Source of the DNA: Candidatus Poribacteria bacterium
GTDB taxonomy: Bacteria; Poribacteria; WGA-4E; PCPOR2b
DNA length: 64,000 bases
Direction: 5' to 3'
Assembly (NCBI GenBank): GCA_965208425.1
Contig: OZ242335.1
Coordinates: forward strand, 2,119,181 to 2,183,180
The notes under the pieces are model-generated. The model worked only from the letters and a program-made list of their open reading frames with translations, had not been told where the DNA came from and ran no database searches. Positions 9,456 through 37,562 of this stretch are shown here, one piece after another (positions within the stretch are counted from its first letter, which is position 1; each line of letters starts with the position of its first letter). A program made the translations under genes and the position numbers.

Positions 9456-12128
9456 ATGCAAATTCAGATTAAACCCAGTTTTCTGTTTTTCGTGTTTACG
9501 TTGTTCGTGTGCCTCAATTCCTTTTTCCTAGGGAATAGTGCTGCCCAAGTTCAAGATGAACCCATTGGTATATCTGCCAACTATACTTTTGAAACGATTG
9601 ATGTTCCCGGCGTCGAGTTTTTGGCGATAACAGCCAGTAGCGACTTTGAGGATTACGCCGGCTACACACTGAGCCCTGATGGTGAAAAGGAAGTCGGCTT
9701 TACACTCATTGATGGCGTTTTTGAGACCTATGATTTCCCCGGCTCGCAGAAAACCCATTTCTACGCGCTTGGTAATAATGGGCTAGCTGCGGGTCACTAC
9801 CAGGATAGCGACGGTCTGTATCATGGCGTTATTGTGGAAGATGGCGAAATGCGGCAATACCATTTTCCGGGTGCGGTCCAAACGGAGATATACGGGTATA
9901 GCGATTCGACGGGGGCAATGACGGGTAATTTTATTGATACTTCTGGCATTCGTCGTGGATTCTCAGGAGATGAAATAATTGAGTATCCCGGGGCAACGGC
10001 AACTTATGCCACTTTTGTGAACGACGTAGGCAATGTCGTGGGTAGCTACATAGATGCTGAAGGTACATATCATGTATACGTGCGTGGTCCCGGGGGTAGT
10101 TTTGCAACTCTGGATATTCCAGCAGGATCGGATCCCGAATACTTTTTTCTGCAAGGTATTAATAACGCCCTGATTGCTGTCGGTCGAGCCAAAGCGGTGG
10201 GTGATGTCCCGCGCACCTATGCCGGCAATGCCATCGGTCTACAAGAATTGCAGTTTCCGGGCAGCGTCAGCACGGAAGGCTGGAATGTTAATCAGGATGG
10301 CTCTATCGTGGGACACTATGACTCTGCGGATGGACGTAGACACGGGTTTATCGCTAGACCGAAAGCGGGTACTCCACAAGCACGACCCGGTGTTGTGCAG
10401 CCTGCCCTCAACTATACCTTTGAGAGTATTGATGTTCCCGGTGTAGATTTTCTGGCGGTAACTGCGAGTAGCGACTTTGAGGATTACGCCGGCAACATGC
10501 GGAGTGCTGATAGTGAAAAAGATATCGGCTTTACACTCATTGACGGCGTTTTTGAGACGTATGATTTCCCTGACTCGCAGGGCACCTATTTCTATGCACT
10601 CGGCAATGATGGGACAGCTGCGGGTCACTACCAAGATAGCGATGGTCTTTACCACGGTGTTATCTTAGAAAATGGCGAACTGCGTCAATATGATTTTCTA
10701 GGTGCTGTCGAAACGTTCATATACGGGTATAGTGATGCGACGGGACGACTAACGGGTAGTTTTATAGATGCTGATGGTGTTCGCCGTGGTTTCTCAGGAG
10801 ATCTAATAATTGAATACCCTGGGGCATCGGCAACCTACGCCGATTTTGTGAACTGGTCAGGCAATATCGTGGGCAGCTACGTGGATGCTGAAGGTATGTA
10901 TCATGCATACACGCGTAGTCCGGTGGGCAGATTTCTATCTATGGACCTTCCAAACGCAACAAATCTGGAATACTTTTTTCTGCACGGTCTCAACAATGCA
11001 AGGGCTGTCGTTGGTCGCGCCAAAGCGGTGGGTGATGTCCCGCGCACCTATGTCGGCAACCCCCTCAATCTACAAGAATTGCGGGTACCGGGCAGCGTCA
11101 GCACGGAAGGGTGGAATATCAATCAGGACGGCTCCGTCGTCGGACACTATGACTCAGCAGGTGGGCGCAGACATGGCTTTATTGCCAGACTCACTTCCGA
11201 GGCGGTGAGCGATTATTTTGGCAACGTCTTCAACGTCACACTGGCTAAAGGTCTGAACATGATCTCTGTGCCGTTGTCACCACCAGCGCCGATGACTGCA
11301 AAATCGCTTGCGGGGCTGACAGGGGCAACCACCGTCATCACACTCGATACGGCAAACCAGCAGTTCGTCGGGTGGACACCAACCGCACCGGACGACGGTT
11401 TTCCAATTGAGGGTGGGAAAGGTTATATCGTCAATGTTCCGGAAACTCGCCAATTTGCCTTCGTCGGGTCAGAATGGACAAATCAGACGGAAACTGCAGC
11501 AGCACCTGCTATCTCCGTGGAGCCGGTCCAAGAAGCGTGGGCGTTCGTTGTAAGTGGTCACTTGGACGGCAAAGCAGCGTTTGATGGTTATCAAGTTATC
11601 GTCCGTAATCTGAGGACAAATCACACAATAACCACCTCGGTACGTGGTGATTACTTCGCCGCTGCGACCGCTGACTTGGCACGGCGGAGTGTTGTCGAAG
11701 TTGGAGATGTGCTTGAAGTCCGTGTTATCGGGCCGGGTGGAAATGTTGAATCACACACCCTCAATTACGAAGTAACCCCTGAAGACCTAGCGAACGCGGT
11801 TATGTCTATCAGGCTTGATAGTATCGGTCAACCGAAGCTGACGCAGTTGTTGCAGAACTTCCCCAATCCGTTTAACCCTGAAACTTGGATTCCATACCAG
11901 CTTGAAACAGCCGCAGATGTCACCCTCCACATTTACCACACAGCAGGTGATATCGTGCGGACGCTGGATCTCGGTTTCAAGGGACAAGGGTTCTATATGA
12001 CGCGCTCTAGGGCAGCGTACTGGGATGGGCGCAATAACTTGGGCGAGCAGGTTGCTTCTGGGGTTTACTTCTACAGCTTACATACCCCTGACTTTTCAGC
12101 GACTCGGAAGATGTTAATTTTGAAGTAG
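9456..12128 (+). CDS. secreted HAF-like-repeat protein with C-terminal NPFNPET (FlgD-Ig / T9SS-type) sorting-like domain, paralog 1 of 3
   Basis: An 890-aa ORF with an AAAGGAG RBS. The signal peptide is MQIQIKPSFLFFVFTLFVCLNSFFLGNSAAQ. Two ~290-aa tandem super-repeats are each made of ~45-aa units of the pattern FPG..T..YGIN..G.VVG.Y.D..G..HGFIA, which is HAF/DUF3466-like. A conserved ~300-aa C-terminal module ends ...LLQNFPNPFNPETWIPYQLETAADVTLHIY...VASGVYFYSL...RKMLILK. Confidence 0.85.
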   Translation: MQIQIKPSFLFFVFTLFVCLNSFFLGNSAAQVQDEPIGISANYTFETIDVPGVEFLAITASSDFEDYAGYTLSPDGEKEVGFTLIDGVFETYDFPGSQKTHFYALGNNGLAAGHYQDSDGLYHGVIVEDGEMRQYHFPGAVQTEIYGYSDSTGAMTGNFIDTSGIRRGFSGDEIIEYPGATATYATFVNDVGNVVGSYIDAEGTYHVYVRGPGGSFATLDIPAGSDPEYFFLQGINNALIAVGRAKAVGDVPRTYAGNAIGLQELQFPGSVSTEGWNVNQDGSIVGHYDSADGRRHGFIARPKAGTPQARPGVVQPALNYTFESIDVPGVDFLAVTASSDFEDYAGNMRSADSEKDIGFTLIDGVFETYDFPDSQGTYFYALGNDGTAAGHYQDSDGLYHGVILENGELRQYDFLGAVETFIYGYSDATGRLTGSFIDADGVRRGFSGDLIIEYPGASATYADFVNWSGNIVGSYVDAEGMYHAYTRSPVGRFLSMDLPNATNLEYFFLHGLNNARAVVGRAKAVGDVPRTYVGNPLNLQELRVPGSVSTEGWNINQDGSVVGHYDSAGGRRHGFIARLTSEAVSDYFGNVFNVTLAKGLNMISVPLSPPAPMTAKSLAGLTGATTVITLDTANQQFVGWTPTAPDDGFPIEGGKGYIVNVPETRQFAFVGSEWTNQTETAAAPAISVEPVQEAWAFVVSGHLDGKAAFDGYQVIVRNLRTNHTITTSVRGDYFAAATADLARRSVVEVGDVLEVRVIGPGGNVESHTLNYEVTPEDLANAVMSIRLDSIGQPKLTQLLQNFPNPFNPETWIPYQLETAADVTLHIYHTAGDIVRTLDLGFKGQGFYMTRSRAAYWDGRNNLGEQVASGVYFYSLHTPDFSATRKMLILK

Positions 12129-27740: not shown

Positions 27741-27979
27741 TATGCCAATTCGATTGGGTTAACAATCCAAGTATACTCCATCTTCGTATTATGTTCAAGA
27801 GGGTTTATATATGCTGGAAATTCTCCCGTCTGCTCTTGGGGATTTTACTTGACTTTTCCTCACAAATTCCTTACACTTTGAACACTTGTAGTGCCGGAAT
27901 TTTAGTGCCTTCCAAAGGCGATCAAAAGGACAATTCATTCAACTAAAAATGTGCGAAAAACAATTAGCGAAGGAGAATA

Positions 27980-30148
27980 ATGAATCACAGAGTACATAAT
28001 CAGATCGTCAACTTTATTTGGGGGATTGCGGACGATGTGTTGAGAGACATCTACACACGTGGGAAATACCGAGACATTATTCTCCCGTTCACCGTTCTAA
28101 GAAGATTGGATGCCCTCTTAGAGCCCACAAAAGAAAAAGTGCGCGAAGTCAACCAATTCCTGATTGAGAACCAGATTGATGATAAATCTGCTCTAAAGGG
28201 GCAATCTGGCTATAAGTTTTATAATACCTCGAGGTTCACTTTCAAAATCTTGTTGAACGATCCAAACCACATCGGTTCAAACTTGAAAAATTATCTGGAC
28301 GGTTTCAGTGAAGATGTGCAGCAAATTATCAGCAAATTCAAACTCAAGAACCAACTCGAAACATTGGAAGATGCTGGTATCACCTTTGCCTTGATTTCAA
28401 AATTCGTTTCCAGAGACATCAATCTGAGTCCCGAAGAAGCAGTAAATAGCAAAGGTGAAATACTGCCTCCGTTAACCAACTTGGGAATGGGTTATGTCTT
28501 TGAGGAATTGATCCGAAGGTTCAGTGAGGAGAACAACGAGGAAGCCGGTGAACACTTTACCCCAAGAGAAATCATCAAACTGATGACTCATCTGCTATTC
28601 CTACCGGTGAAGGATAAACTCACAGAGGGCACAACATATCTGATTTATGACCCCGCCTGTGGGTCGGGCGGAATGCTTACAGAAGCGGAACTGTTTGCCA
28701 AGGAATTGACGCAGGAGCGAAATGAATTTTTCCTTTATGGACAAGAGGTCACCCCGGAAACCTACGCGACTTGCACGGCAGACATGCTAATCAAGGACAA
28801 AGATCCTGAAAACATCGCCCACGGTTCTACTCTCTCAGAAGACAGTTTCCCGCACCTGCGATTTGACTTCATGCTCTCCAATCCGCCCTATGGCAAAAGT
28901 TGGAAACTTGACTATGATGCGATTGTTGGTGACAAAAAGCAAATCAAAGACGATCGATTTCGCGTCGGTGTCCCCAGAGTCAGCGACGGACAACTCCTTT
29001 TTCTCTCCAATATGATCTCTAAAATGAAGCACGACACGGCACTCGGAAGTAGGATCGCTATTGTTCATAACGGATCTGCTATCTTTACGGGGGAGGCTGG
29101 AAGTGGCGAGAGTGAAATCCGTAAACAGATGATTGAAAATGATTGGTTGGAGTGTATTATTGAACTTCCCCAGAACATCTTTTACAACACCGGGATTTCA
29201 ACCTACATCTGGATTCTTTCCAATCGGAAGCCGAACCGCCGCCAAGGGAAAATACAACTTATTGATGCCTCCCAACTTTACCAGAAGCTCAACAAGAATT
29301 TAGGGCAGAAGAATTGTGAGTTAACGGACGAGCACATCGACAAAATTACGCAGCTCTATCTTAACTTTGCAGAAAGCGAGATCTCAAAGATTTTTGGGAA
29401 CGCAGAATTTGGCTATCAAAAAATCACCGTTGATCGACCATTACGGCTGTCCGCTAGATTCACCCCTGAGGCAGTCGAAACGCTCCGTTTTGCGAATGTC
29501 CTCCGGGCTGAAATGGAATGGGTTTATAAACGATTTGGCGATGCAGTTTATGAGGATTTAACACCCCATAAGCAACAGATTGAGGCGTATATCGCTTACA
29601 ACGAAATCAAGATCAGCCCCGCAAATAATAAGAAAAAGCTACTTGACCCGAAGTTTTGGAACACACAAAGAAAAGTCATGGAAGCAGCCGAAAAGTTGAT
29701 GGTGGAGTTGGGCGACTACGAATCTAATGACTTTAATAAATTCCGACATGCGGTTGATGATACCCTCAAAATGTTTGGGATTTCACTCAGTGCAATCGAA
29801 AAGAAAACAATTTTCAATGCCGTTAGTTGGAAGGACGAAAGTGCACAACCTGTCATCAAAAAATGGGACCGGGATGGCACGTTCCATTATGAGCCTGATC
29901 CAGACCTAAGAGATACAGAAAATGTTCCGTTGGTGCAAGAGATTGACGACTACTTCCAAACGGAAGTTCTGCCCTATGTACCTGATGCGTGGATCGATGA
30001 AGATAAAACTGTTAAAGGCTATGAGATTCCCTTTACCAAATACTTCTACCGGTATCAACCGTTGCCAAGTCTTGAGGAGATTACTGCTGACGTTCTTGTT
30101 CTTACACAGGAAACCGAGGGCATTTTACAGGATATCATCGAATCGTAG
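27980..30148 (+). CDS. hsdM: Type I restriction-modification system, DNA methyltransferase subunit M (long form, 722 aa)
   Basis: The RBS is AAGGAGAA. Motif I is IYDPACGSGGML and motif IV is MLSNPPYGKSW (NPPY, N6-adenine). An HsdM_N-like N-terminus is present, plus a ~200-aa C-terminal extension. Confidence 0.9.
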   Translation: MNHRVHNQIVNFIWGIADDVLRDIYTRGKYRDIILPFTVLRRLDALLEPTKEKVREVNQFLIENQIDDKSALKGQSGYKFYNTSRFTFKILLNDPNHIGSNLKNYLDGFSEDVQQIISKFKLKNQLETLEDAGITFALISKFVSRDINLSPEEAVNSKGEILPPLTNLGMGYVFEELIRRFSEENNEEAGEHFTPREIIKLMTHLLFLPVKDKLTEGTTYLIYDPACGSGGMLTEAELFAKELTQERNEFFLYGQEVTPETYATCTADMLIKDKDPENIAHGSTLSEDSFPHLRFDFMLSNPPYGKSWKLDYDAIVGDKKQIKDDRFRVGVPRVSDGQLLFLSNMISKMKHDTALGSRIAIVHNGSAIFTGEAGSGESEIRKQMIENDWLECIIELPQNIFYNTGISTYIWILSNRKPNRRQGKIQLIDASQLYQKLNKNLGQKNCELTDEHIDKITQLYLNFAESEISKIFGNAEFGYQKITVDRPLRLSARFTPEAVETLRFANVLRAEMEWVYKRFGDAVYEDLTPHKQQIEAYIAYNEIKISPANNKKKLLDPKFWNTQRKVMEAAEKLMVELGDYESNDFNKFRHAVDDTLKMFGISLSAIEKKTIFNAVSWKDESAQPVIKKWDRDGTFHYEPDPDLRDTENVPLVQEIDDYFQTEVLPYVPDAWIDEDKTVKGYEIPFTKYFYRYQPLPSLEEITADVLVLTQETEGILQDIIES

Positions 30149-30277
30149 GTCGAATTTCAAAATTCGACGATAATATTCATCAATATGTAGTTCTCTACGA
30201 ATTGTGCGAAATCTTACTCCTTGACAACCTAGGGAGTTTCAAATCAAGACAACATCTGGTAAGTATTTGCGTCATTC

Positions 30278-31621
30278 GTGATGAAGTACAACTGTCAACG
30301 AACGAAAAGCGAACTAATAAAAATGTACAAACGGTATAACAGTTATAAGGAATCCGGATTCGCGTGGCTGGGGGAGATTCCGAGTCATTGGGAAGCGTCC
30401 ACGATCAATGCTCTAACAAAGGTTGTAAGTCGAAAAAATAAACCGAGCGAGCCATTGCTTTCTGTTTACAGGGATTATGGAGTTATTCTGAAAAGTTCAA
30501 GAGATGATAATTATAATAAGCCCGGACAAGATTTAAGTGCCTACAAGTTTGTTAAGCCTACGAATCTAGTCCTAAACAAGATGAAAACGTGGCAAGGGTC
30601 GCTTGGTGTCTCGGAGCTTCAGGGAATTGTGAGCCCTGCATATATCACGTGTGAGTTAGACATCTCAAATGTATTTCCAAAGTATTTGCATTATCTACTG
30701 CGATGCCACAATTACATTTATGAGTATAACAGATTATCGTATGGCGTAAGAACTAACCAGTGGGACATGAGGTACGATGATTTTAAGAAAATACCTGTGT
30801 TTTTGCCATCGAAGCAAGAACAACATGCCATTGCCGCCTTTCTTGACCGCAAGATTACCGAAATCGACCGCTTCATTGCTAGTGAAGAGAAGCTCATTGC
30901 CCAGTTAAATGGGCAGAGAGCTGTCATTATCAACCATGCTGTTACAAAGGGACTTGACTCGGACGTGCAAATGAAAACGTCGAAGGTTAAGTGGATTGTG
31001 GAGATGCCAAAACACTGGACAATTACAAAATTGAAATATACTTCCAACATTCCTGTGACTTATGGTCTTAATATTGAGGCAGATAGATATACTACAGAAG
31101 GAATCAGATTGATTAGAATTACTGATATTGATGAAAAAGGTGGTCTCCGAAAAAGAGGGGTTTATCTGCCTGAAAACTGTGTTCCTCGAGAGCAGATGCT
31201 TAATGGTTATGATTTGCTTTTGTCTCGTAGTGGCGCAACGGTGGGAAAATCCTATTTGCACCTTGAAGCAGGGCAATACACTAGTGCAGGCTATCTGGTT
31301 AGATTTAACTTCGGTGATTATTACACGTCTAAGTTTATTTATTACGTAACACAATCACACTTTTATCGGAATTGGCTTGAGCAACAGATAATTATAGCGA
31401 CAATTCAGAATGTTAATGGCGAAAAGTATTCAAATTTTCAACTCCCTATTCCTTCGCATCAAGAACGGAAACATATTGTCAACTTCCTCAACTACAAAAC
31501 TAAACAGATCGACGAGTTTGTATCCAAAGAACGCCAAAAAATCGAGCTTATCAAACAATACCGCCAAGTCCTCATCTCTCAAGCGGTCACCGGAAAAATT
31601 GATGTGAGAGGGACAGTATGA
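30278..31621 (+). CDS. hsdS: Type I restriction-modification system specificity subunit S (two target-recognition domains)
   Basis: A 447-aa, AT-rich ORF of about 38% GC. A duplicated TRD architecture is separated by conserved coiled regions (...EKLIAQLNGQRAVII... and ...ELIKQYRQVLISQAVTGKIDV). The start is uncertain: 30278 or 30323. Confidence 0.85.
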   Translation: MMKYNCQRTKSELIKMYKRYNSYKESGFAWLGEIPSHWEASTINALTKVVSRKNKPSEPLLSVYRDYGVILKSSRDDNYNKPGQDLSAYKFVKPTNLVLNKMKTWQGSLGVSELQGIVSPAYITCELDISNVFPKYLHYLLRCHNYIYEYNRLSYGVRTNQWDMRYDDFKKIPVFLPSKQEQHAIAAFLDRKITEIDRFIASEEKLIAQLNGQRAVIINHAVTKGLDSDVQMKTSKVKWIVEMPKHWTITKLKYTSNIPVTYGLNIEADRYTTEGIRLIRITDIDEKGGLRKRGVYLPENCVPREQMLNGYDLLLSRSGATVGKSYLHLEAGQYTSAGYLVRFNFGDYYTSKFIYYVTQSHFYRNWLEQQIIIATIQNVNGEKYSNFQLPIPSHQERKHIVNFLNYKTKQIDEFVSKERQKIELIKQYRQVLISQAVTGKIDVRGTV

Positions 31622-31676
31622 TTAACCCTCCCTAGGTTGATTTTGACAACTCGGCCTACAAGTGTAAGGACAAAAA

Positions 31677-34658
31677 TTGATGAATACAACAGACATGCGC
31701 GAGCGAGGTTTTCAGAAATCCATTGCGGGATACCTCACCCAAACCAACGGCTACCGAGAGACGAAATCAGGAGACTACAATACAGAATTCTGTGTCAACA
31801 GAGCCCAATTGCTGGAGTTTATCAAAAAAACCCAAGAAGACGCTTACGAACTCATTCAGAAAAGGGGTGAGCGGGAGTTTTTGGTACGTTTAGATGAAAA
31901 AATTGAAAAGAGGGGAGTTGTCGAGGTCCTCCGCAAAGGAATCAAACACTTCGACAAAACCGTTCGTGTTTTCTACACGCAACCTGTATCGGAGCTCAAC
32001 CCTCTGGATAGCGAACGGTACAACGCCAATATCTTCTCTGTAACGCAGGAATTGATTTATAGCGAAAATAATAACAACGAGCTAGACCTTGTTATTTTTA
32101 TTAATGGTTTACCAATCATCACAATGGAGTTGAAGAACGGCTATACTAAGCAGTCCGTTTTTAACGGCATCCGTCAATATCAGAATGACCGTGACTCCAA
32201 GGAGAAGCTATTCAACCTCGCCAGATGCCTCGTCCACTTCGCTGCCGATACCGACTTGGTCTATATGACAACGCATCTGAAGAACAAACACACCCAATTT
32301 TTGCCATTCAATAAAGGGCAGAACAATGGGAAACCTACCCCCCCTTACGGCGCAGGCAACCCCGTCAACCCAAACGGTGAAAAAACACACTATCTTTGGG
32401 AGGAGGTGCTTACCAAAGATAGCTTGAGCAATATTATTGAGAGGTTCGCCCAAGTGGTTGTCGAAAAAGATGAGGATACCCAAGAAACAGCAAGAAGACT
32501 AATCTTTCCAAGATACCATCAACTCAAAGTCGTTCGGAATTTGCTATCACACGCCAAAGAGAATGGTGTCGAGCAAAAATACCTCATCCAGCATTCGGCG
32601 GGCTCCGGTAAATCCCATTCTATCACGTGGCTTGCCCACCAACTTGTCGGTTTGCATGACCAAACCAATACCCAGAACATCTTTGACAGTGTAATCGTTG
32701 TTACGGATCGAACTGTCTTGGATGAGCAGATCCGAGAACACATCAAGGATTTTGCACAGGTAAAAGATGTCGTCGCTGCTATCACCGGAGTTGGAGACAC
32801 TAAGACTCAGCAACTTGAGTCTGCCATCGTGGACCAGAAAAAGATCATCACTACAACGATACAGACGTTTCCATTCCTCGTTGACAAAATCGAAAAGATG
32901 GAAGGTGCTAACTTTGCGATTATCATTGATGAAGCCCACAGCAGTCAAAGTGGGGAATTTACTGCCAAAATGAACACGGTTTTAGCGAACAAAGAGCCGA
33001 ACGATGAAGATGAGGAAGTCGAAGAGACGTGGGAAGACACAATCAACGCGCTAATCAACGCTCGCAAGATGCTCACAAATGGCAGCTATTTCGCCTTTAC
33101 TGCAACGCCTAAAAGCAGGACACTTGAAACCTTCGGTCAAAAAGGAACAGATGGCAAATTCTATCCCTTCCATCTCTACTCAATGAAGCAGGCGATTGAA
33201 GAAGAGTTTATTCTTGACGTTTTGCAAAATTACACGACATACAACTCTTACTATAAGCTCATCAAAACTGTTGAGTACAACCCTGATTACGACATCAAGA
33301 GTGCCCAGAGAGAACTCCGCCATTACGTTGAAAATCACGAATACGCAATCACCCAAAAAGCCCGAGTCATGATTGACCACTTTATGCAAGAAGTAAAGCA
33401 CCGCATTCACGGTCAAGCAAAAGCAATGGTCGTCACGAGCTCCATCCCGAATGCGATTAAATACAAAGAGGCGTTTGACACCTACCTAAAGGAACTTAAC
33501 TCATCATATAAAGCGATTATCGCCTTTTCCGGCACGAAGCAGCACAAGAGTATTGAAGTACGCGAATCCGACCTCAACGGATTCCCGGATAACGATAACG
33601 ATATCCGCAAACATTTCAAAAAAGAGGAATACAAGTTCCTTATCGTCGTCGAGAAATTCCAAACCGGTTTTGACCAACCTCTTTTACACACGATGTATGT
33701 TGATAAAAAGTTGGCAGGTGTCCATGCTGTTCAAACCTTATCTCGATTGAATCGAGCGTATAAGCCCCATAAGAGAGATACGTTTGTCTTGGATTTTGTG
33801 AATACGGTTGACGACATCAGAGAAGCGTTTGAACCCTATTACACAACCACTATCTTGACCGAAGAAACCGACCCCAACCGGCTCAACGATCTGCAAGAAG
33901 TTTTGGAGGGTTATCAGGTTTACTCAGAAGTAAAGGTGAAAGAATTCTGCATGTTGTATCACAGTGGTGCGGAGAGGTCTGAAGTCGCTCCAATTCTGGA
34001 TGCTGCTGCCCAAATCTTCAAAGACGATTTATCTGAGGAAGAAAAGATTGATTTCAAAACCCAAGCCAGATCATTTGAGCGAACTTATAGTTTTCTAGGG
34101 TGTCTCCTTGACTTCAATAATCCCTATTGGGAGGAGTTGTGGTGGTTTCTGAAATTTCTCATTCCCAAGCTCACAATTGACAATACCGAGGACTTTGCTG
34201 CCGACATTCTGGATGAGGTTGATATGGAGAGCTACAGAGTTTCGATACAGGGGATGACAAACATTGCGTTGGAAGAAGAGGATAGTGAGGTTGCTCCGCT
34301 TTCAATTATCGAAAGTGGTCAACAGCGTGATCCTGATCTCGACAGCTTGGAAAATATCATTGAAGCGTTCAATCAGCGTTTCGGAGACATTGAATGGGAG
34401 GATAACGATAAGGTTCGCAGAATCTTGAGTGAAGAAATCCCAAATGAGCTGAAAGGCAACAGTGATACGATCCAGACAATCCAGAGCTCAGATCCGCAGA
34501 ATGCGAAAATCGCCTCTGACAGGAAACTTGCTGAATTTATGCGAGCGTTGTTGTTCACGCACACGGAGATCTATAAGAAATTCACCGATGATCCTGACTT
34601 CAAGAGTCAATACGAAGATTTTGTATTCGATATCCTGCGGCAACAGAGAGATCGTTAG
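31677..34658 (+). CDS. hsdR: Type I restriction enzyme endonuclease/helicase subunit R
   Basis: A 993-aa ORF. The N-terminal PD-(D/E)xK nuclease is ELDLVIFINGLPIITMELKN. SF2 helicase Walker A is HSAGSGKSHSITW and the DEAH box is IIIDEAHSSQ. The C-terminus is typical of HsdR. Confidence 0.9.
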   Translation: MMNTTDMRERGFQKSIAGYLTQTNGYRETKSGDYNTEFCVNRAQLLEFIKKTQEDAYELIQKRGEREFLVRLDEKIEKRGVVEVLRKGIKHFDKTVRVFYTQPVSELNPLDSERYNANIFSVTQELIYSENNNNELDLVIFINGLPIITMELKNGYTKQSVFNGIRQYQNDRDSKEKLFNLARCLVHFAADTDLVYMTTHLKNKHTQFLPFNKGQNNGKPTPPYGAGNPVNPNGEKTHYLWEEVLTKDSLSNIIERFAQVVVEKDEDTQETARRLIFPRYHQLKVVRNLLSHAKENGVEQKYLIQHSAGSGKSHSITWLAHQLVGLHDQTNTQNIFDSVIVVTDRTVLDEQIREHIKDFAQVKDVVAAITGVGDTKTQQLESAIVDQKKIITTTIQTFPFLVDKIEKMEGANFAIIIDEAHSSQSGEFTAKMNTVLANKEPNDEDEEVEETWEDTINALINARKMLTNGSYFAFTATPKSRTLETFGQKGTDGKFYPFHLYSMKQAIEEEFILDVLQNYTTYNSYYKLIKTVEYNPDYDIKSAQRELRHYVENHEYAITQKARVMIDHFMQEVKHRIHGQAKAMVVTSSIPNAIKYKEAFDTYLKELNSSYKAIIAFSGTKQHKSIEVRESDLNGFPDNDNDIRKHFKKEEYKFLIVVEKFQTGFDQPLLHTMYVDKKLAGVHAVQTLSRLNRAYKPHKRDTFVLDFVNTVDDIREAFEPYYTTTILTEETDPNRLNDLQEVLEGYQVYSEVKVKEFCMLYHSGAERSEVAPILDAAAQIFKDDLSEEEKIDFKTQARSFERTYSFLGCLLDFNNPYWEELWWFLKFLIPKLTIDNTEDFAADILDEVDMESYRVSIQGMTNIALEEEDSEVAPLSIIESGQQRDPDLDSLENIIEAFNQRFGDIEWEDNDKVRRILSEEIPNELKGNSDTIQTIQSSDPQNAKIASDRKLAEFMRALLFTHTEIYKKFTDDPDFKSQYEDFVFDILRQQRDR

Positions 34659-35078
34659 GAGACTGGTGGGGCCTATTTTATAGTGAATTCTAAAAATAAA
34701 TAGACGTCAAAAGTAGTAGGCACACGGCGTGTGCCCTAACTGTGTGCACAAGGTTGCTGACCTCGCTTGTTCATAGTGTCTAGTGAATTCTGAAATCTAC
34801 TATAAATTGCTGTGGAATAGGTACAGAACATTGGTTGAGTTTCTTCAAGATTTTCCAAGAACAAAAAGACGAAAAATCTATCAACGCTGAACTGAATAGA
34901 CTAAGGACTTTAGTAACTGGTATAGATAGGGAAACCGACCACCAAATAACTGACGCATTGGAAAAATCGTGTCGGGTATTGATGATCTGTTGTATCAAAG
35001 ACAAACATAGGATTTGGCGTTGTGAACTTAATCGCACTCCACACAGAACCCAACGTAGAATAACCTCAAAGAGAAAAA

Positions 35079-35515
35079 CTATGAGCACAGACAAGGAAAA
35101 ACTCCAAAAGTATGAAGAAGATACTGAACAAGAAATAAAGGACGAAATCAACGAACTAGACAACAGAAAAGCACTAACCGCTCAAATAACATGTACATCC
35201 CTGCTAATCATATCTTCGATGATGATAGGATACACAGCCAAACTTCCAACAACCACATGCCTAACAAAGCTAACATTCACAGCATTTACATCAACCATCA
35301 TACTAACCATAATCTCACTTATCATTAGCAAGATAAAGCTAGACAAAGACATCAAAAAATACATTACAAAGATAAAAGAAAGAGACTTTAAGCCCGAAGA
35401 AAAACCATACAATGAAGACGCATTATCAAGAACAGGAGAATACCTATCGGTATTATCAATAGTAACATTCCTAACCGGCATAATCACAGCAACAATAACA
35501 ATAATCTTAACATAA
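35079..35515 (+). CDS. hypothetical small membrane protein (low-complexity, A-skewed); coding strand uncertain
   Basis: MSTDKEKLQKYEEDTEQEIKDEINELDNRKALTAQITCTSLLIISSMMIGYTAKL... has 3-4 predicted TM helices. The 226-aa ORF-track extension begins with TTG at 34835. Overlapping minus-strand ORFs of similar length exist because of extreme strand compositional skew. Confidence 0.3.
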
Positions 35516-35530
35516 TCCCCAAAGAAAGGA

Positions 35531-35719
35531 TTGAGCATGAACACGAAAGAAAAGGATACACCACGAGACAAAGAAGACCCCATACGAGAGCATGGCATAC
35601 CATCCAGAACCCCCACCATACCAATAACAGAGCCACCAATACCAACAGATACTCCTGAAGAAGCACCAGAAACCCCACAGCCCGATAACCCACCACCTGA
35701 AGAACCAGAAAAGGAGTAG
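35531..35719 (+). CDS. hypothetical small acidic Pro/Glu/Thr-rich protein
   Basis: A 62-aa ORF with an AAAGGA RBS: MSMNTKEKDTPRDKEDPIREHGIPSRTPTIPITEPPIPTDTPEEAPETPQPDNPPPEEPEKE. It is low complexity and may not be coding. Confidence 0.25.
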   Translation: MSMNTKEKDTPRDKEDPIREHGIPSRTPTIPITEPPIPTDTPEEAPETPQPDNPPPEEPEKE

Positions 35720-35767
35720 CAAACACAATCTCAAGTCATAAACTTAGCAACGCCTAGGATTTAAACC

Positions 35768-36157
35768 TTGACCTATGGAGATTTCAAAATGCAACTCGAA
35801 GATTATTTTGACTTTTTGTCGGAGGATGATATTCGGATTAAAGACACGCGCATCGGCATTGAGAGCGTTCTATACGAGTATATCCATCGCGACCAGGAGC
35901 CAAAAGCCATAGTGCAGTGCTACCACACGCTTTCTCTGGAACAAGTTTACGCAACGATTCTCTATTATCTGCACAACAAAGAAAGGGTCGGTGCGTATTT
36001 GGCAGATTACCTCGAATACTGTCGAAAGTCGAAAGAGGACTACGAGAAAAATCTACCACCTGTAGTGGCGCGACTCCGACAACTCAAAGCAGAACGTGAA
36101 TCAGGGGAAGCGAGAATTGTTCATTCGCCCACCGAACCGGGCGACATAATGCCCTAA
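35768..36157 (+). CDS. DUF433-like protein (putative antitoxin-like DNA-binding fold)
   Basis: A 129-aa ORF. IRIKDTRIGIESVLYEY...QCYHTLSLEQVYATILYYLHNKERV resembles the DUF433 core (RI.GTRI.V..VL... P.Lt.eqv.aAL.YY). Confidence 0.4.
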   Translation: MTYGDFKMQLEDYFDFLSEDDIRIKDTRIGIESVLYEYIHRDQEPKAIVQCYHTLSLEQVYATILYYLHNKERVGAYLADYLEYCRKSKEDYEKNLPPVVARLRQLKAERESGEARIVHSPTEPGDIMP

Positions 36158-36166
36158 AAAACCGAA

Positions 36167-37411: not shown

Positions 37412-37562
37412 AGAAACCTCGTTCTATACAAGTGCGAAGAGAAACCGAGTTTTTTCTTGAAAACTCGGTTTCTTTGCACTATTTCTTAACATGAGCCATT
37501 GTTTTTACGTTTCACGCATCACGTTTCACGTTATCAACAGCTGCAAACTAGCACCATCGGTT

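Follow-up and report, generated by a model that had tools for sequence, protein, structure and literature searches.

A 739-bp insertion carrying an unannotated gene pair in a composite defence island of a Candidatus Poribacteria bacterium

The island analysed here occupies positions 27,741–36,166 (8.4 kb) of a 64,000-nt stretch of Candidatus Poribacteria bacterium DNA (assembly GCA_965208425.1, contig OZ242335.1, positions 2,119,181–2,183,180), which is referred to as the window and whose coordinates are used throughout. It is probably a composite defence island, lodged in a recombination hot spot that has a Gfo/Idh/MocA gene on one side and an SHMT-like gene on the other, and is made up of a Type I restriction-modification (R-M) operon, older relics and a 739-bp element at 35016–35754 that carries a conserved pair of small genes; for the pair and its element we infer, from sequence comparison, an effector role, mobilisation in trans and an origin of the skewed strand composition. 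A first-pass annotation of the region was right in outline, since it described an ordinary defence island, but it misread the fine structure, and the noteworthy part is the 739-bp cassette with its unannotated gene pair. The R-M island is routine and gives one further example of the heavy defence-gene load reported for sponge symbionts (e.g. PMC5649159). The value of the region lies in the small insertion, a dated and cleanly bounded mobility event for an unannotated two-gene family of which 5.8 billion protein clusters yielded just 26 members.

The insertion was delimited by blastn of window positions 24–40 kb against 78 related loci retrieved with the SHMT-like flanking protein, followed by protein checks; the closest of these loci all belong to Candidatus Poribacteria metagenome-assembled genomes (MAGs), with at most 96% amino acid identity. 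The 739 bp, read on the plus strand, are absent from six relatives (L002, L003, L005, L007, L009 and L012), in which the equivalent of position 35015 joins that of 35755 directly, the sequence ...CAAACATAGGATTTAAACCTTGAC... is uninterrupted, and the DUF433 gene that follows starts 26 nt after the stop codon of a 313-aa gene. The octamer TAGGATTT is present in a single copy at this unoccupied site in the six relatives, slightly diverged in L005 and L007, and in the window it is found on both sides of the insertion, at 35008–35015, where it contains the TAG stop of a remnant gene, and again in direct orientation at 35755–35762. The insertion is bordered by terminal inverted repeats at 35016–35032 and 35738–35754, where the left end GGCGTTGTGAACTTAAT and the reverse complement of the right end GGCGTTGCTAAGTTTAT match perfectly over the first 7 nt and at 13 of 17 positions overall, and its ends GGCGTTG...CAACGCC are the sole such pair with matching 8-bp flanks in the 1.6 Mb of sequence compared. 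On these comparisons the only economical reading is that the segment was inserted in this lineage with duplication of its target site, and an assembly chimera is unlikely because a chimeric join does not make an exact 8-bp duplication and inverted repeats at its borders. The insertion lies exactly between two relics, a Type II remnant and an orphan DUF433 gene, that are described below. The strong plus-strand A-richness recorded earlier for 34660–35760 is real, while its extent has to be redrawn, as it belongs to the sharply bounded segment 35016–35754.

Within the element a 65-nt leader is followed by a gene at 35081–35515, a 21-nt spacer containing AAAGGA, a second gene at 35537–35719 and a 35-nt tail, and neither the list of open reading frames (ORFs) nor Pfam shows a transposase or recombinase inside it. 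The insert had no blastn match among plasmids and phages, and its left-end 20-mer was not found in a scan of viral contigs. A scan with the end motif GTCANNAACTTAGCAACGC returned one viral and 26 metagenome matches, which were judged to be chance or unrelated since none has the skew, the extended motif or the genes.

The first gene (plus strand) codes for a 144-aa protein with three transmembrane (TM) segments, arranged as a charged N-terminal helix, a TM1–TM2 hairpin, a K/E-rich linker and TM3, and the second (plus strand) for a 60-aa Pro/Glu-rich peptide with the Shine-Dalgarno-like AAAGGA 6 nt upstream. A multi-TM protein and a Pro/Glu-rich peptide had both been proposed for this segment, and both genes stand, but the membrane gene had been placed on a 145-aa ORF of the minus strand (35182–35619) that spans the gap between the two plus-strand genes. 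This ORF is not conserved in homologous loci while the plus-strand pair is, and it is therefore taken to be an antisense shadow and not a gene. Open frames on both strands are longer than in at least 99.8% of dinucleotide shuffles (the longest plus-strand frame is reached by 0.1% of shuffles), as is expected where sense and antisense frames have their third codon positions in common, and those of the minus ORF are shared with the plus-strand genes. The plus strand has a strong codon periodicity, with G enriched at position 1 and T at position 2, and the hydrophobic segments of its protein are three, of a regular 23–25 residues. By sequence conservation the 144-aa TM gene and the 60-aa peptide gene are a true pair.

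Relatives of the 144-aa protein are few. It gave no match when used alone in a word-indexed homology search, and peptide-pattern scans of genome, viral and metagenome collections found no relative, but phmmer, run exhaustively over 1.84 billion representatives, identified three full-length relatives of 142–146 aa, and profile searches extended these to the family of 26 proteins counted among the 5.8 billion clusters. Nearly all are 141–164 aa long, none is named and none has a Pfam domain; homologues range down to 25–40% amino acid identity, and as far as observed the family occurs only in sponge-associated metagenomes and MAGs. In each of the eight close-subfamily loci that were read, a Pro-rich ORF of 45–62 codons starts 10–30 nt after the TM gene and is preceded by a GAAAGG-type ribosome-binding site. 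The peptides are of two types, an acidic-tailed one ending in ...PQPDNPPPEEPEKE (window, L080 and L110–L112) and a basic one ending in ...GGAKPPHGK..KPKPKKK (L079, L081, L109 and L113). Its dN/dS of 0.28–0.44 in close pairs indicates that the small ORF is under purifying selection, and in protein P0024 the TM protein is fused to a proline-rich tail. The distant member P0013 (L115) has a longer partner that ends in a zinc ribbon. Judged by these alignments the pair is conserved in sponge-associated bacteria.

In the modules of L109, L113 and L079 the synonymous divergence of the TM gene is 3–4 times lower than that of the Pro-rich ORF (dS 0.09–0.13 and 0.29–0.57, respectively), with a TM-gene dN/dS of about 1–1.8, which suggests synonymous-site constraint, diversifying selection on the protein, or mosaic recombination.

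The element is also set apart by the composition of its strands. Between 35000 and 35750 the plus strand has an AT skew of up to +0.53, a GC skew of about −0.3 and an A+C fraction of 0.71, against a window mean of 0.513 ± 0.038, thus more than 5 standard deviations above it, and the insertion is composed of 44.7% A, 25.2% C, 14.2% G and 16.0% T. At third codon positions the TM gene has A 57%, C 25%, G 10% and T 9%, against A 15%, C 22%, G 36% and T 27% in the SHMT-like gene, and the 121 non-coding nt of the insert show the same bias. The TM genes of L079, L080, L109 and L110–L113 have A fractions of 0.42–0.46 and G fractions of 0.11–0.13, that of L081 is more weakly skewed (A 0.38, G 0.18), and in L079 and L113 the skew does not extend beyond the module, the neighbouring genes having a positive GC skew. 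An A+C-rich, G+T-poor sense strand thus appears to be a heritable trait, and one of the close subfamily, because the distant P0013 has ordinary composition.

The folding energy of the 739 nt (−79 kcal/mol) is no better than that of shuffled sequences (z = −0.47), and the transcript is predicted to be almost unstructured. The skew might come from selection at the RNA level for an unstructured mRNA of rare codons, or alternatively from a strand-specific process in which C and A of the bottom strand, opposite to the sense strand, are deaminated while the element passes through a single-stranded stage, a pattern known from the vertebrate mitochondrial heavy strand. When G was collapsed to A in order to look for a hypermutated parent, low-complexity matches made up most of the output, and the statistics were invalid. 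The likeness to mitochondrial DNA prompted us to consider a mitochondrial or host-DNA fragment, which was rejected on finding no Pfam match on either strand and a bacterial gene pair with ribosome-binding sites. A structured non-coding RNA was likewise rejected, since no Rfam family reaches its gathering score and the fold does not differ from shuffles; the only sub-threshold Rfam match in the region lies outside the insert. The signature (45% A and 14% G on the sense strand, in close relatives and not in a distant one) is rare and measurable, and might be used to find such cassettes and to study their movement.

How the element moves is approached through its ends. The right-end motif CTCAAGTCATAAACTTAGCAACGCC (35730–35754) is conserved in homologous modules elsewhere, as CTCAAGTCAAGAACTTAGCAACGCC in L080 and as the variant TCATGAACTGAGCAACGCC in L109 and L113, and the terminal motif TCAnnAACT[T/G]AGCAACGCC is conserved even where the proteins are only about 30% identical. 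An identical protein, P0004, is found in two different neighbourhoods, which confirms that it moved recently. We propose that the element is a non-autonomous, passenger-carrying cassette of the type of miniature inverted-repeat transposable elements (MITEs) or mobile insertion cassettes (MICs), and that it would be moved in trans by an enzyme recognising the conserved terminal motif. Duplications of 8 bp are made by several insertion sequence (IS) families besides IS1595; the homologous module of L110 adjoins an IS1595-family transposase gene, but no matching ends were seen by eye in its flanks.

The MIC concept reportedly goes back to MIC231 of Bacillus cereus. MICs and MITEs are non-autonomous IS derivatives, some of which carry passenger genes, and the present element agrees with them in its size of 739 bp, the lack of a transposase, inverted repeats that begin with GG and match at 13 of 17 positions, an 8-bp duplication, and two passenger genes that take up nearly all of its length. 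It differs from them in a strand composition far more skewed than usual, and in that the same module is elsewhere bounded by direct and not by inverted copies of the end motif. Several of our results count against mobilisation of this kind: a second copy of the element was not found in the 64-kb window or the 78 related loci, nor was a parent IS; a cognate transposase was not seen in the same sequences, and the island has neither a transposase nor a recombinase gene; and the direct terminal-motif copies that flank the modules of L080 and L109 conflict with a simple transposon with terminal inverted repeats, and therefore point to site-specific recombination.

The competing explanation is accordingly a site-specific recombination cassette, integron-like or dif-module-like, with its crossover in a core of about 14 bp, AACT[T/G]AGCAACGCC, of which the window copy would be an off-target or secondary product; we hold it to be unlikely, though a serious contender. 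It accounts well for the direct motif copies (521–539 and 1218–1236 in L080, 499–512 and 1182–1195 in L109), whose pattern resembles the attL and attR of a site-specific cassette, for apparently unoccupied sites AAAAGCCTATAACTGAGCAACGCC near the modules in L110 and L111, for a degenerate direct copy of the motif in the window at 35046–35059, and for the several homologues that lie inside cassette arrays headed by a tyrosine recombinase. It accounts poorly for the window copy, where the 8-bp duplication of a target unlike the core and the inverted motif at the left end are typical of DDE transposition, 8 bp being the length made by IS1595-family elements among others (PMC8101967). Moreover, no copy of the motif occurs in 1.4 Mb from other Poribacteria loci, the motif is unlike the integron attC consensus (RYYYAAC...GTTRRRY), and neither an integron integrase nor any other recombinase gene occurs among the island ORFs (ORF list, Pfam).

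An integron gene cassette proper was considered and rejected, since TAGCAAC and GTTGTGA are unlike attC cores and the inverted motifs stand 739 bp apart and not within one site of 55–140 nt. Modules that depend on Xer and dif sites are said to occur on Acinetobacter plasmids. With integron cassettes and dif modules the element has in common that it is very small, poor in promoters, limited to one or two genes and marked at its 3' end by a conserved sequence of recombination type, and that some of its homologues are in arrays beside a tyrosine recombinase, but the window has no attC-like R''/R' cores, no folded attC of at least 55 nt and no integrase, and its copy has a target duplication, which integron and dif systems do not make.

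The arrays occur in L113 (4138–11842), L079 (4181–7322), L081 (2726–5904) and L109 (1251–1272), and consist of small ORFs that share a strand and lack Pfam domains; between them recurs a palindromic site of 22 bp, TCCGATAA-N6-TTATCGGA, whose spacer varies. In L113 and in L081 a gene for a tyrosine recombinase stands at the head of the array, and the two are 84% identical to each other while the cargo differs. The layout suggests a cassette system akin to integrons or dif modules, with sites of the lox/dif type; the 22-bp site is absent from the window and from the 78 Poribacteria loci.

A variant of the module travels as a 1.1-kb unit in L110 (7653–8748) and L111 (5311–6427), which contains two hairpin-containing repeats (CACTCCAAA..AG.A.AAAG plus hairpin), an intrinsic terminator, a promoter of consensus type (TTGACA-18-TATAAT) and a terminal hairpin GGTTGCTAT...ATAGCAACC. 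Some 120 nt upstream of its TM gene it also holds TAGGATTT, the octamer of the window's target duplication.

The homologous modules are repeatedly found among defence genes: Type I hsdR, GmrSD and a HaeII-type R-M system in L079; a TIR-TPR protein, GGACT, Schlafen-AlbA and a UvrD helicase in L081, where the homologue sits two genes after the TIR-TPR protein; a methyltransferase-HNH fusion in L111; MUG113, FRG-TPR and BrnT/BrnA in L113; SIR2, SMEK and GmrSD in L115; and HicB in L109. Compared with PADLOC models the family members gave weak matches only, nearly all to the 2TM/SLATT effector class and to the same protein segment, which runs from a conserved LSNSQ..DR motif before TM1 through TM2 and aligns with profile positions of about 17–95. 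The matches are to the SLATT protein associated with reverse transcriptases (RTasSLATT; E 8e-4, 2e-3, 0.011 and weaker), PycTM (E 4.5e-4) and the 2TM effector of CBASS (E 0.014 and 0.024), and NCBIfam SLATT_5 is matched with E 0.007.

SLATT proteins are mobile proteins of 2–3 TM segments, predicted to be pore-forming (accessory) effectors of CBASS, RADAR and DRT systems (PMC9226505). The present proteins share with these and with the 2TM effectors of Pycsar a small size, a conserved polar motif before a TM1–TM2 hairpin and 2–3 TM segments, they are likewise mobile and located in defence islands, and the weak profile matches fall on the corresponding segment. They differ in that the matches are below threshold and that the window has no cyclase or reverse transcriptase as partner but a proline-rich peptide of 45–62 aa; nor does the window element contain any other signal-producing or sensing partner that was looked for (CD-NTase, adenosine deaminase), the proline-rich peptide being its only companion. 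To our knowledge a proline-rich peptide partner has not been reported for SLATT systems.

We favour the view that the pair is a self-contained membrane-attacking effector with a small regulator, in which a SLATT-like pore former would be held in check, or triggered, by the proline-rich peptide, so that the two may act as an abortive-infection or addiction module. If so, the family may widen the SLATT/2TM effector class by a form that stands alone and has a peptide as partner. Several findings weigh on the other side. The matches to SLATT, 2TM and Pycsar models are all below curated or conventional significance, and TM-rich sequences draw spurious profile hits; the 144-aa protein of the window itself matches no SLATT or 2TM model in PADLOC or NCBIfam, and the Pfam SLATT models match no family member. 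Searches of the family against Pfam, PHROGs and PDB sequences had no usable result. The AlphaFold model of the 144-aa protein is moderate (pLDDT 68.6, pTM 0.51; helices 3–54, 60–99 and 114–143), and Foldseek found no match to it in the PDB below E 0.6. In one subfamily the TM gene has a dN/dS near or above 1, which fits an arms race and equally a relaxed constraint.

These weak similarities leave some room for a different reading of the same genes, namely that the pair is real and mobile but not directed against phages, being a plain addiction module (post-segregational killing) or having a membrane role outside defence, such as in envelope stress or in the interaction with the sponge host. 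Defence islands gather selfish cargo as well, and the family is confined to sponge-associated metagenomes and MAGs as far as seen; still, the recurrent company of restriction, GmrSD, TIR, SIR2 and toxin-antitoxin genes, and the concentration of the sub-threshold matches on 2TM/SLATT effectors, with one and the same protein segment aligned every time, make this reading doubtful. A SLATT-like membrane effector with a proline-rich partner is therefore kept as the favoured candidate.

That a further small system might be hidden beside the R-M genes had been anticipated, and the 739-bp insertion with its gene pair does adjoin the Type I operon. The proposal went on to combine the small membrane protein with the DUF433 protein as an abortive-infection or toxin-antitoxin-like accessory of the R-M system, for which it can be said that the two genes are adjacent on the same strand and that both families occur in defence contexts. 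This combination is very improbable: DUF433 is present at the site in six relatives without the membrane protein, beside a Type II R-M system or a DUF5615 toxin gene, which is its actual partner; none of the other module loci examined has DUF433 adjoining the membrane protein; and in the window the insertion boundary and the target duplication separate the two genes. The membrane protein is not paired with DUF433; it arrived later on the insertion with a conserved peptide partner of its own. Finally, it is hardly credible that the A-rich stretch is hypermutated or decayed non-coding debris or an assembly chimera whose ORFs are accidents of composition, as might be supposed from the unusually long open frames on both strands, the lack of any Pfam, PHROG or Rfam match and the empty word-indexed search, when its two-gene architecture is conserved with homologues down to 25–40% identity, its small ORF evolves under purifying selection, the pair also exists as a fusion, and its borders bear the exact duplication and inverted repeats that a chimeric join would not give.

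A bolder synthesis, which we put forward only as a long shot, is that the element belongs to a class of miniature gene cassettes not described before, which are carried by sponge symbionts, have the terminal site TCAnnAACT[T/G]AGCAACGCC and would be mobilised in trans, with a two-component membrane-attack module as cargo (a SLATT-like pore former and a sometimes-fused proline-rich peptide) and a skew that would record a single-stranded stage. If this were true, such cassettes would, with the palindrome-separated arrays headed by a tyrosine recombinase, constitute an integron-like gene-capture system with sites other than attC.

The junction between the Gfo/Idh/MocA and SHMT-like genes is a recombination hot spot by comparison of the retrieved loci, because its occupants differ among relatives. 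An empty junction, which had been suggested as a check, was found in L006, L008 and L011, where it measures 18–215 bp. In the closest relative, L001, a REP-associated tyrosine transposase gene (RAYT; NF047646, E 1e-42) lies at 11246–11960 amid three copies of the repetitive extragenic palindrome (REP) TAGGTCGAGATTCACATCTCGAC. An N6_N4 methyltransferase gene, the 313-aa gene and DUF433 are present in L002, L003, L005 and L009, the methyltransferase and 313-aa genes in L007 and L064, and DUF433 with a DUF5615 PIN-like gene in L010. The same Type I operon abuts the SHMT-like gene directly in L014, with 89% nucleotide identity over 6.7 kb, and in L012 it is accompanied by DUF5615, DUF433 and an interrupted 313-aa gene; these two loci are from two other species, and their operons, beside the same SHMT-like gene, are 83–89% identical to that of the window. 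In L012 (18986–20748) an IS3-family element with HTH_21 and rve ORFs interrupts the putative restriction gene of 313 aa, which amounts to a further independent inactivation of the Type II system at the hot spot.

The Type II remnant of the window, at 34810–35015 on the plus strand (206 bp), is the 3' end of the 313-aa putative Type II restriction gene, comprising its last ~68 codons (about 246–313). Its 5' side is lost, it is 89% identical to the L009 protein at the amino acid level, and it carries a 1-nt frameshift in an A-run; the gene is intact in L002, L003, L005, L007 and L009, and its product has no Pfam match. The frameshift and the insertion together leave one open frame of 226 codons (34835–35515) that runs from the remnant through the leader of the element into the TM gene, which is probably accidental but could allow read-through translation.

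The DUF433 (COG2442) gene, already placed downstream of the A-rich region by the first-pass annotation, lies at 35789–36157 on the plus strand and encodes an antitoxin-type protein of 122 aa (PF04255, E 4e-6, 26.9 bits against a cut-off of 23.6) that is 89–92% identical to the copies in six relatives. DUF433/COG2442 proteins are the antitoxin-type component of PIN-associated, VapBC-like pairs (PMC2701414, PMC3834315), and while L010 and L012 share the gene and keep a DUF5615 PIN-like partner, there is no adjacent PIN-like toxin gene in the window island, where the antitoxin-type gene stands alone. It is an orphan here, since its stop codon is only 9 bp from that of the SHMT-like gene and no room is held by a DUF5615 partner. 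From the state of the relatives, the remnant and the orphan DUF433 gene are leftovers of an older occupant, a Type II R-M system with a DUF433/DUF5615 pair, that is intact in relatives. The sub-threshold Rfam match mentioned above overlaps the start of DUF433 (35763–35822, minus strand); it scores 21.5 bits for the cyanobacterial small RNA NsiR4, whose gathering score is 40 (E 0.06), and is probably due to chance.

Between the Type I operon and the remnant is a spacer unique to this genome (34659–34809), with a palindrome GGCACACGGCGTGTGCC at 34719–34735 and a 22-nt direct repeat at 34674 and 34774. A stretch of 127 bp within it (34681–34807), which holds the palindrome and the repeat, is 77% identical to an intergenic segment on the other side of the Gfo gene in L005 (7262–7388), and is possibly a small mobile intergenic element, judging from this match.

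The operon itself (27980–34658) is by domain content a complete, conventional Type I R-M operon of an existing family with long HsdM. As first described, hsdM, hsdS and hsdR are all on the same (plus) strand and have full domain sets (Pfam, PADLOC, NCBIfam). The hsdM gene (27980–30148) encodes 722 aa with HsdM_N (PF12161, E 3e-20), N6_Mtase (PF02384, E 3e-66) and a C-terminal extension. Its length had been pointed out as exceptional, and the figure of 722 aa is correct, but it is not unusual, because residues 2–720 match positions 2–660 of the 661 in the PADLOC model MTase_I PDLC03029 end to end (E 6e-266) and L012 and L014 have HsdM proteins of the same 722 aa with 85–87% identity. The hsdS gene (30278–31621, 447 aa) has two target-recognition domains, seen as two Methylase_S stretches in Pfam, and residues 16–446 match positions 3–440 of 448 in Specificity_I PDLC03105 (E 4e-101). 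The product of hsdR (31677–34658, 993 aa) contains an HSDR_N nuclease, an SF2 motor (SWI2_SNF2/ResIII) and a T1R_D3-like region, and is matched by REase_I of PADLOC and by TIGR00348 of NCBIfam, the latter with E 4.5e-66 and under the curated cut-off of that model.

Compared with known Type I systems with long HsdM (PDLC03029), the gene order and all defining domains are the same and there is no structural difference; only the central region of hsdS departs from the L012 copy, as expected for an exchange of specificity domains. This central part (30394–31536) is almost unalignable with L012, where hsdM and hsdR are 83–86% identical at the nucleotide level, while the L014 copy of the operon is 89% identical throughout, and the divergence fits a swap of target-recognition domains between systems that are otherwise homologous.

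The G+C content is 48.9% for the window, 42.5% for the island, 40.2% for hsdS and 52–54% for the flanking genes. The description as a low-GC island thus holds in relation to the flanks, while the figures given with it (52% for the window and 38% for hsdS) were off. Horizontal acquisition had been suggested on that ground, and a variable, lower-GC island with a complete Type I R-M system fits this, but not as a single acquired unit: going by the states of the locus in the relatives, the island was assembled in at least three separate events.

Upstream of hsdM and of the divergent Gfo/Idh/MocA gene is a low-GC intergenic leader (27741–27979). The window keeps there 25 bp (27867–27891, TTCCTTACACTTTGAACACTTGTAG) in common with L001, where they precede the first REP and are followed by the REP copies and the RAYT gene. 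Upstream of the SHMT-like gene, at 37438–37475, is a 38-bp palindromic element, AGAGAAACCGAGTTTTTTCTTGAAAACTCGGTTTCTTT, with 100% identical copies at unrelated positions in L009, L010 and L014, which on this distribution is a dispersed hairpin repeat, terminator-like or REP-like.

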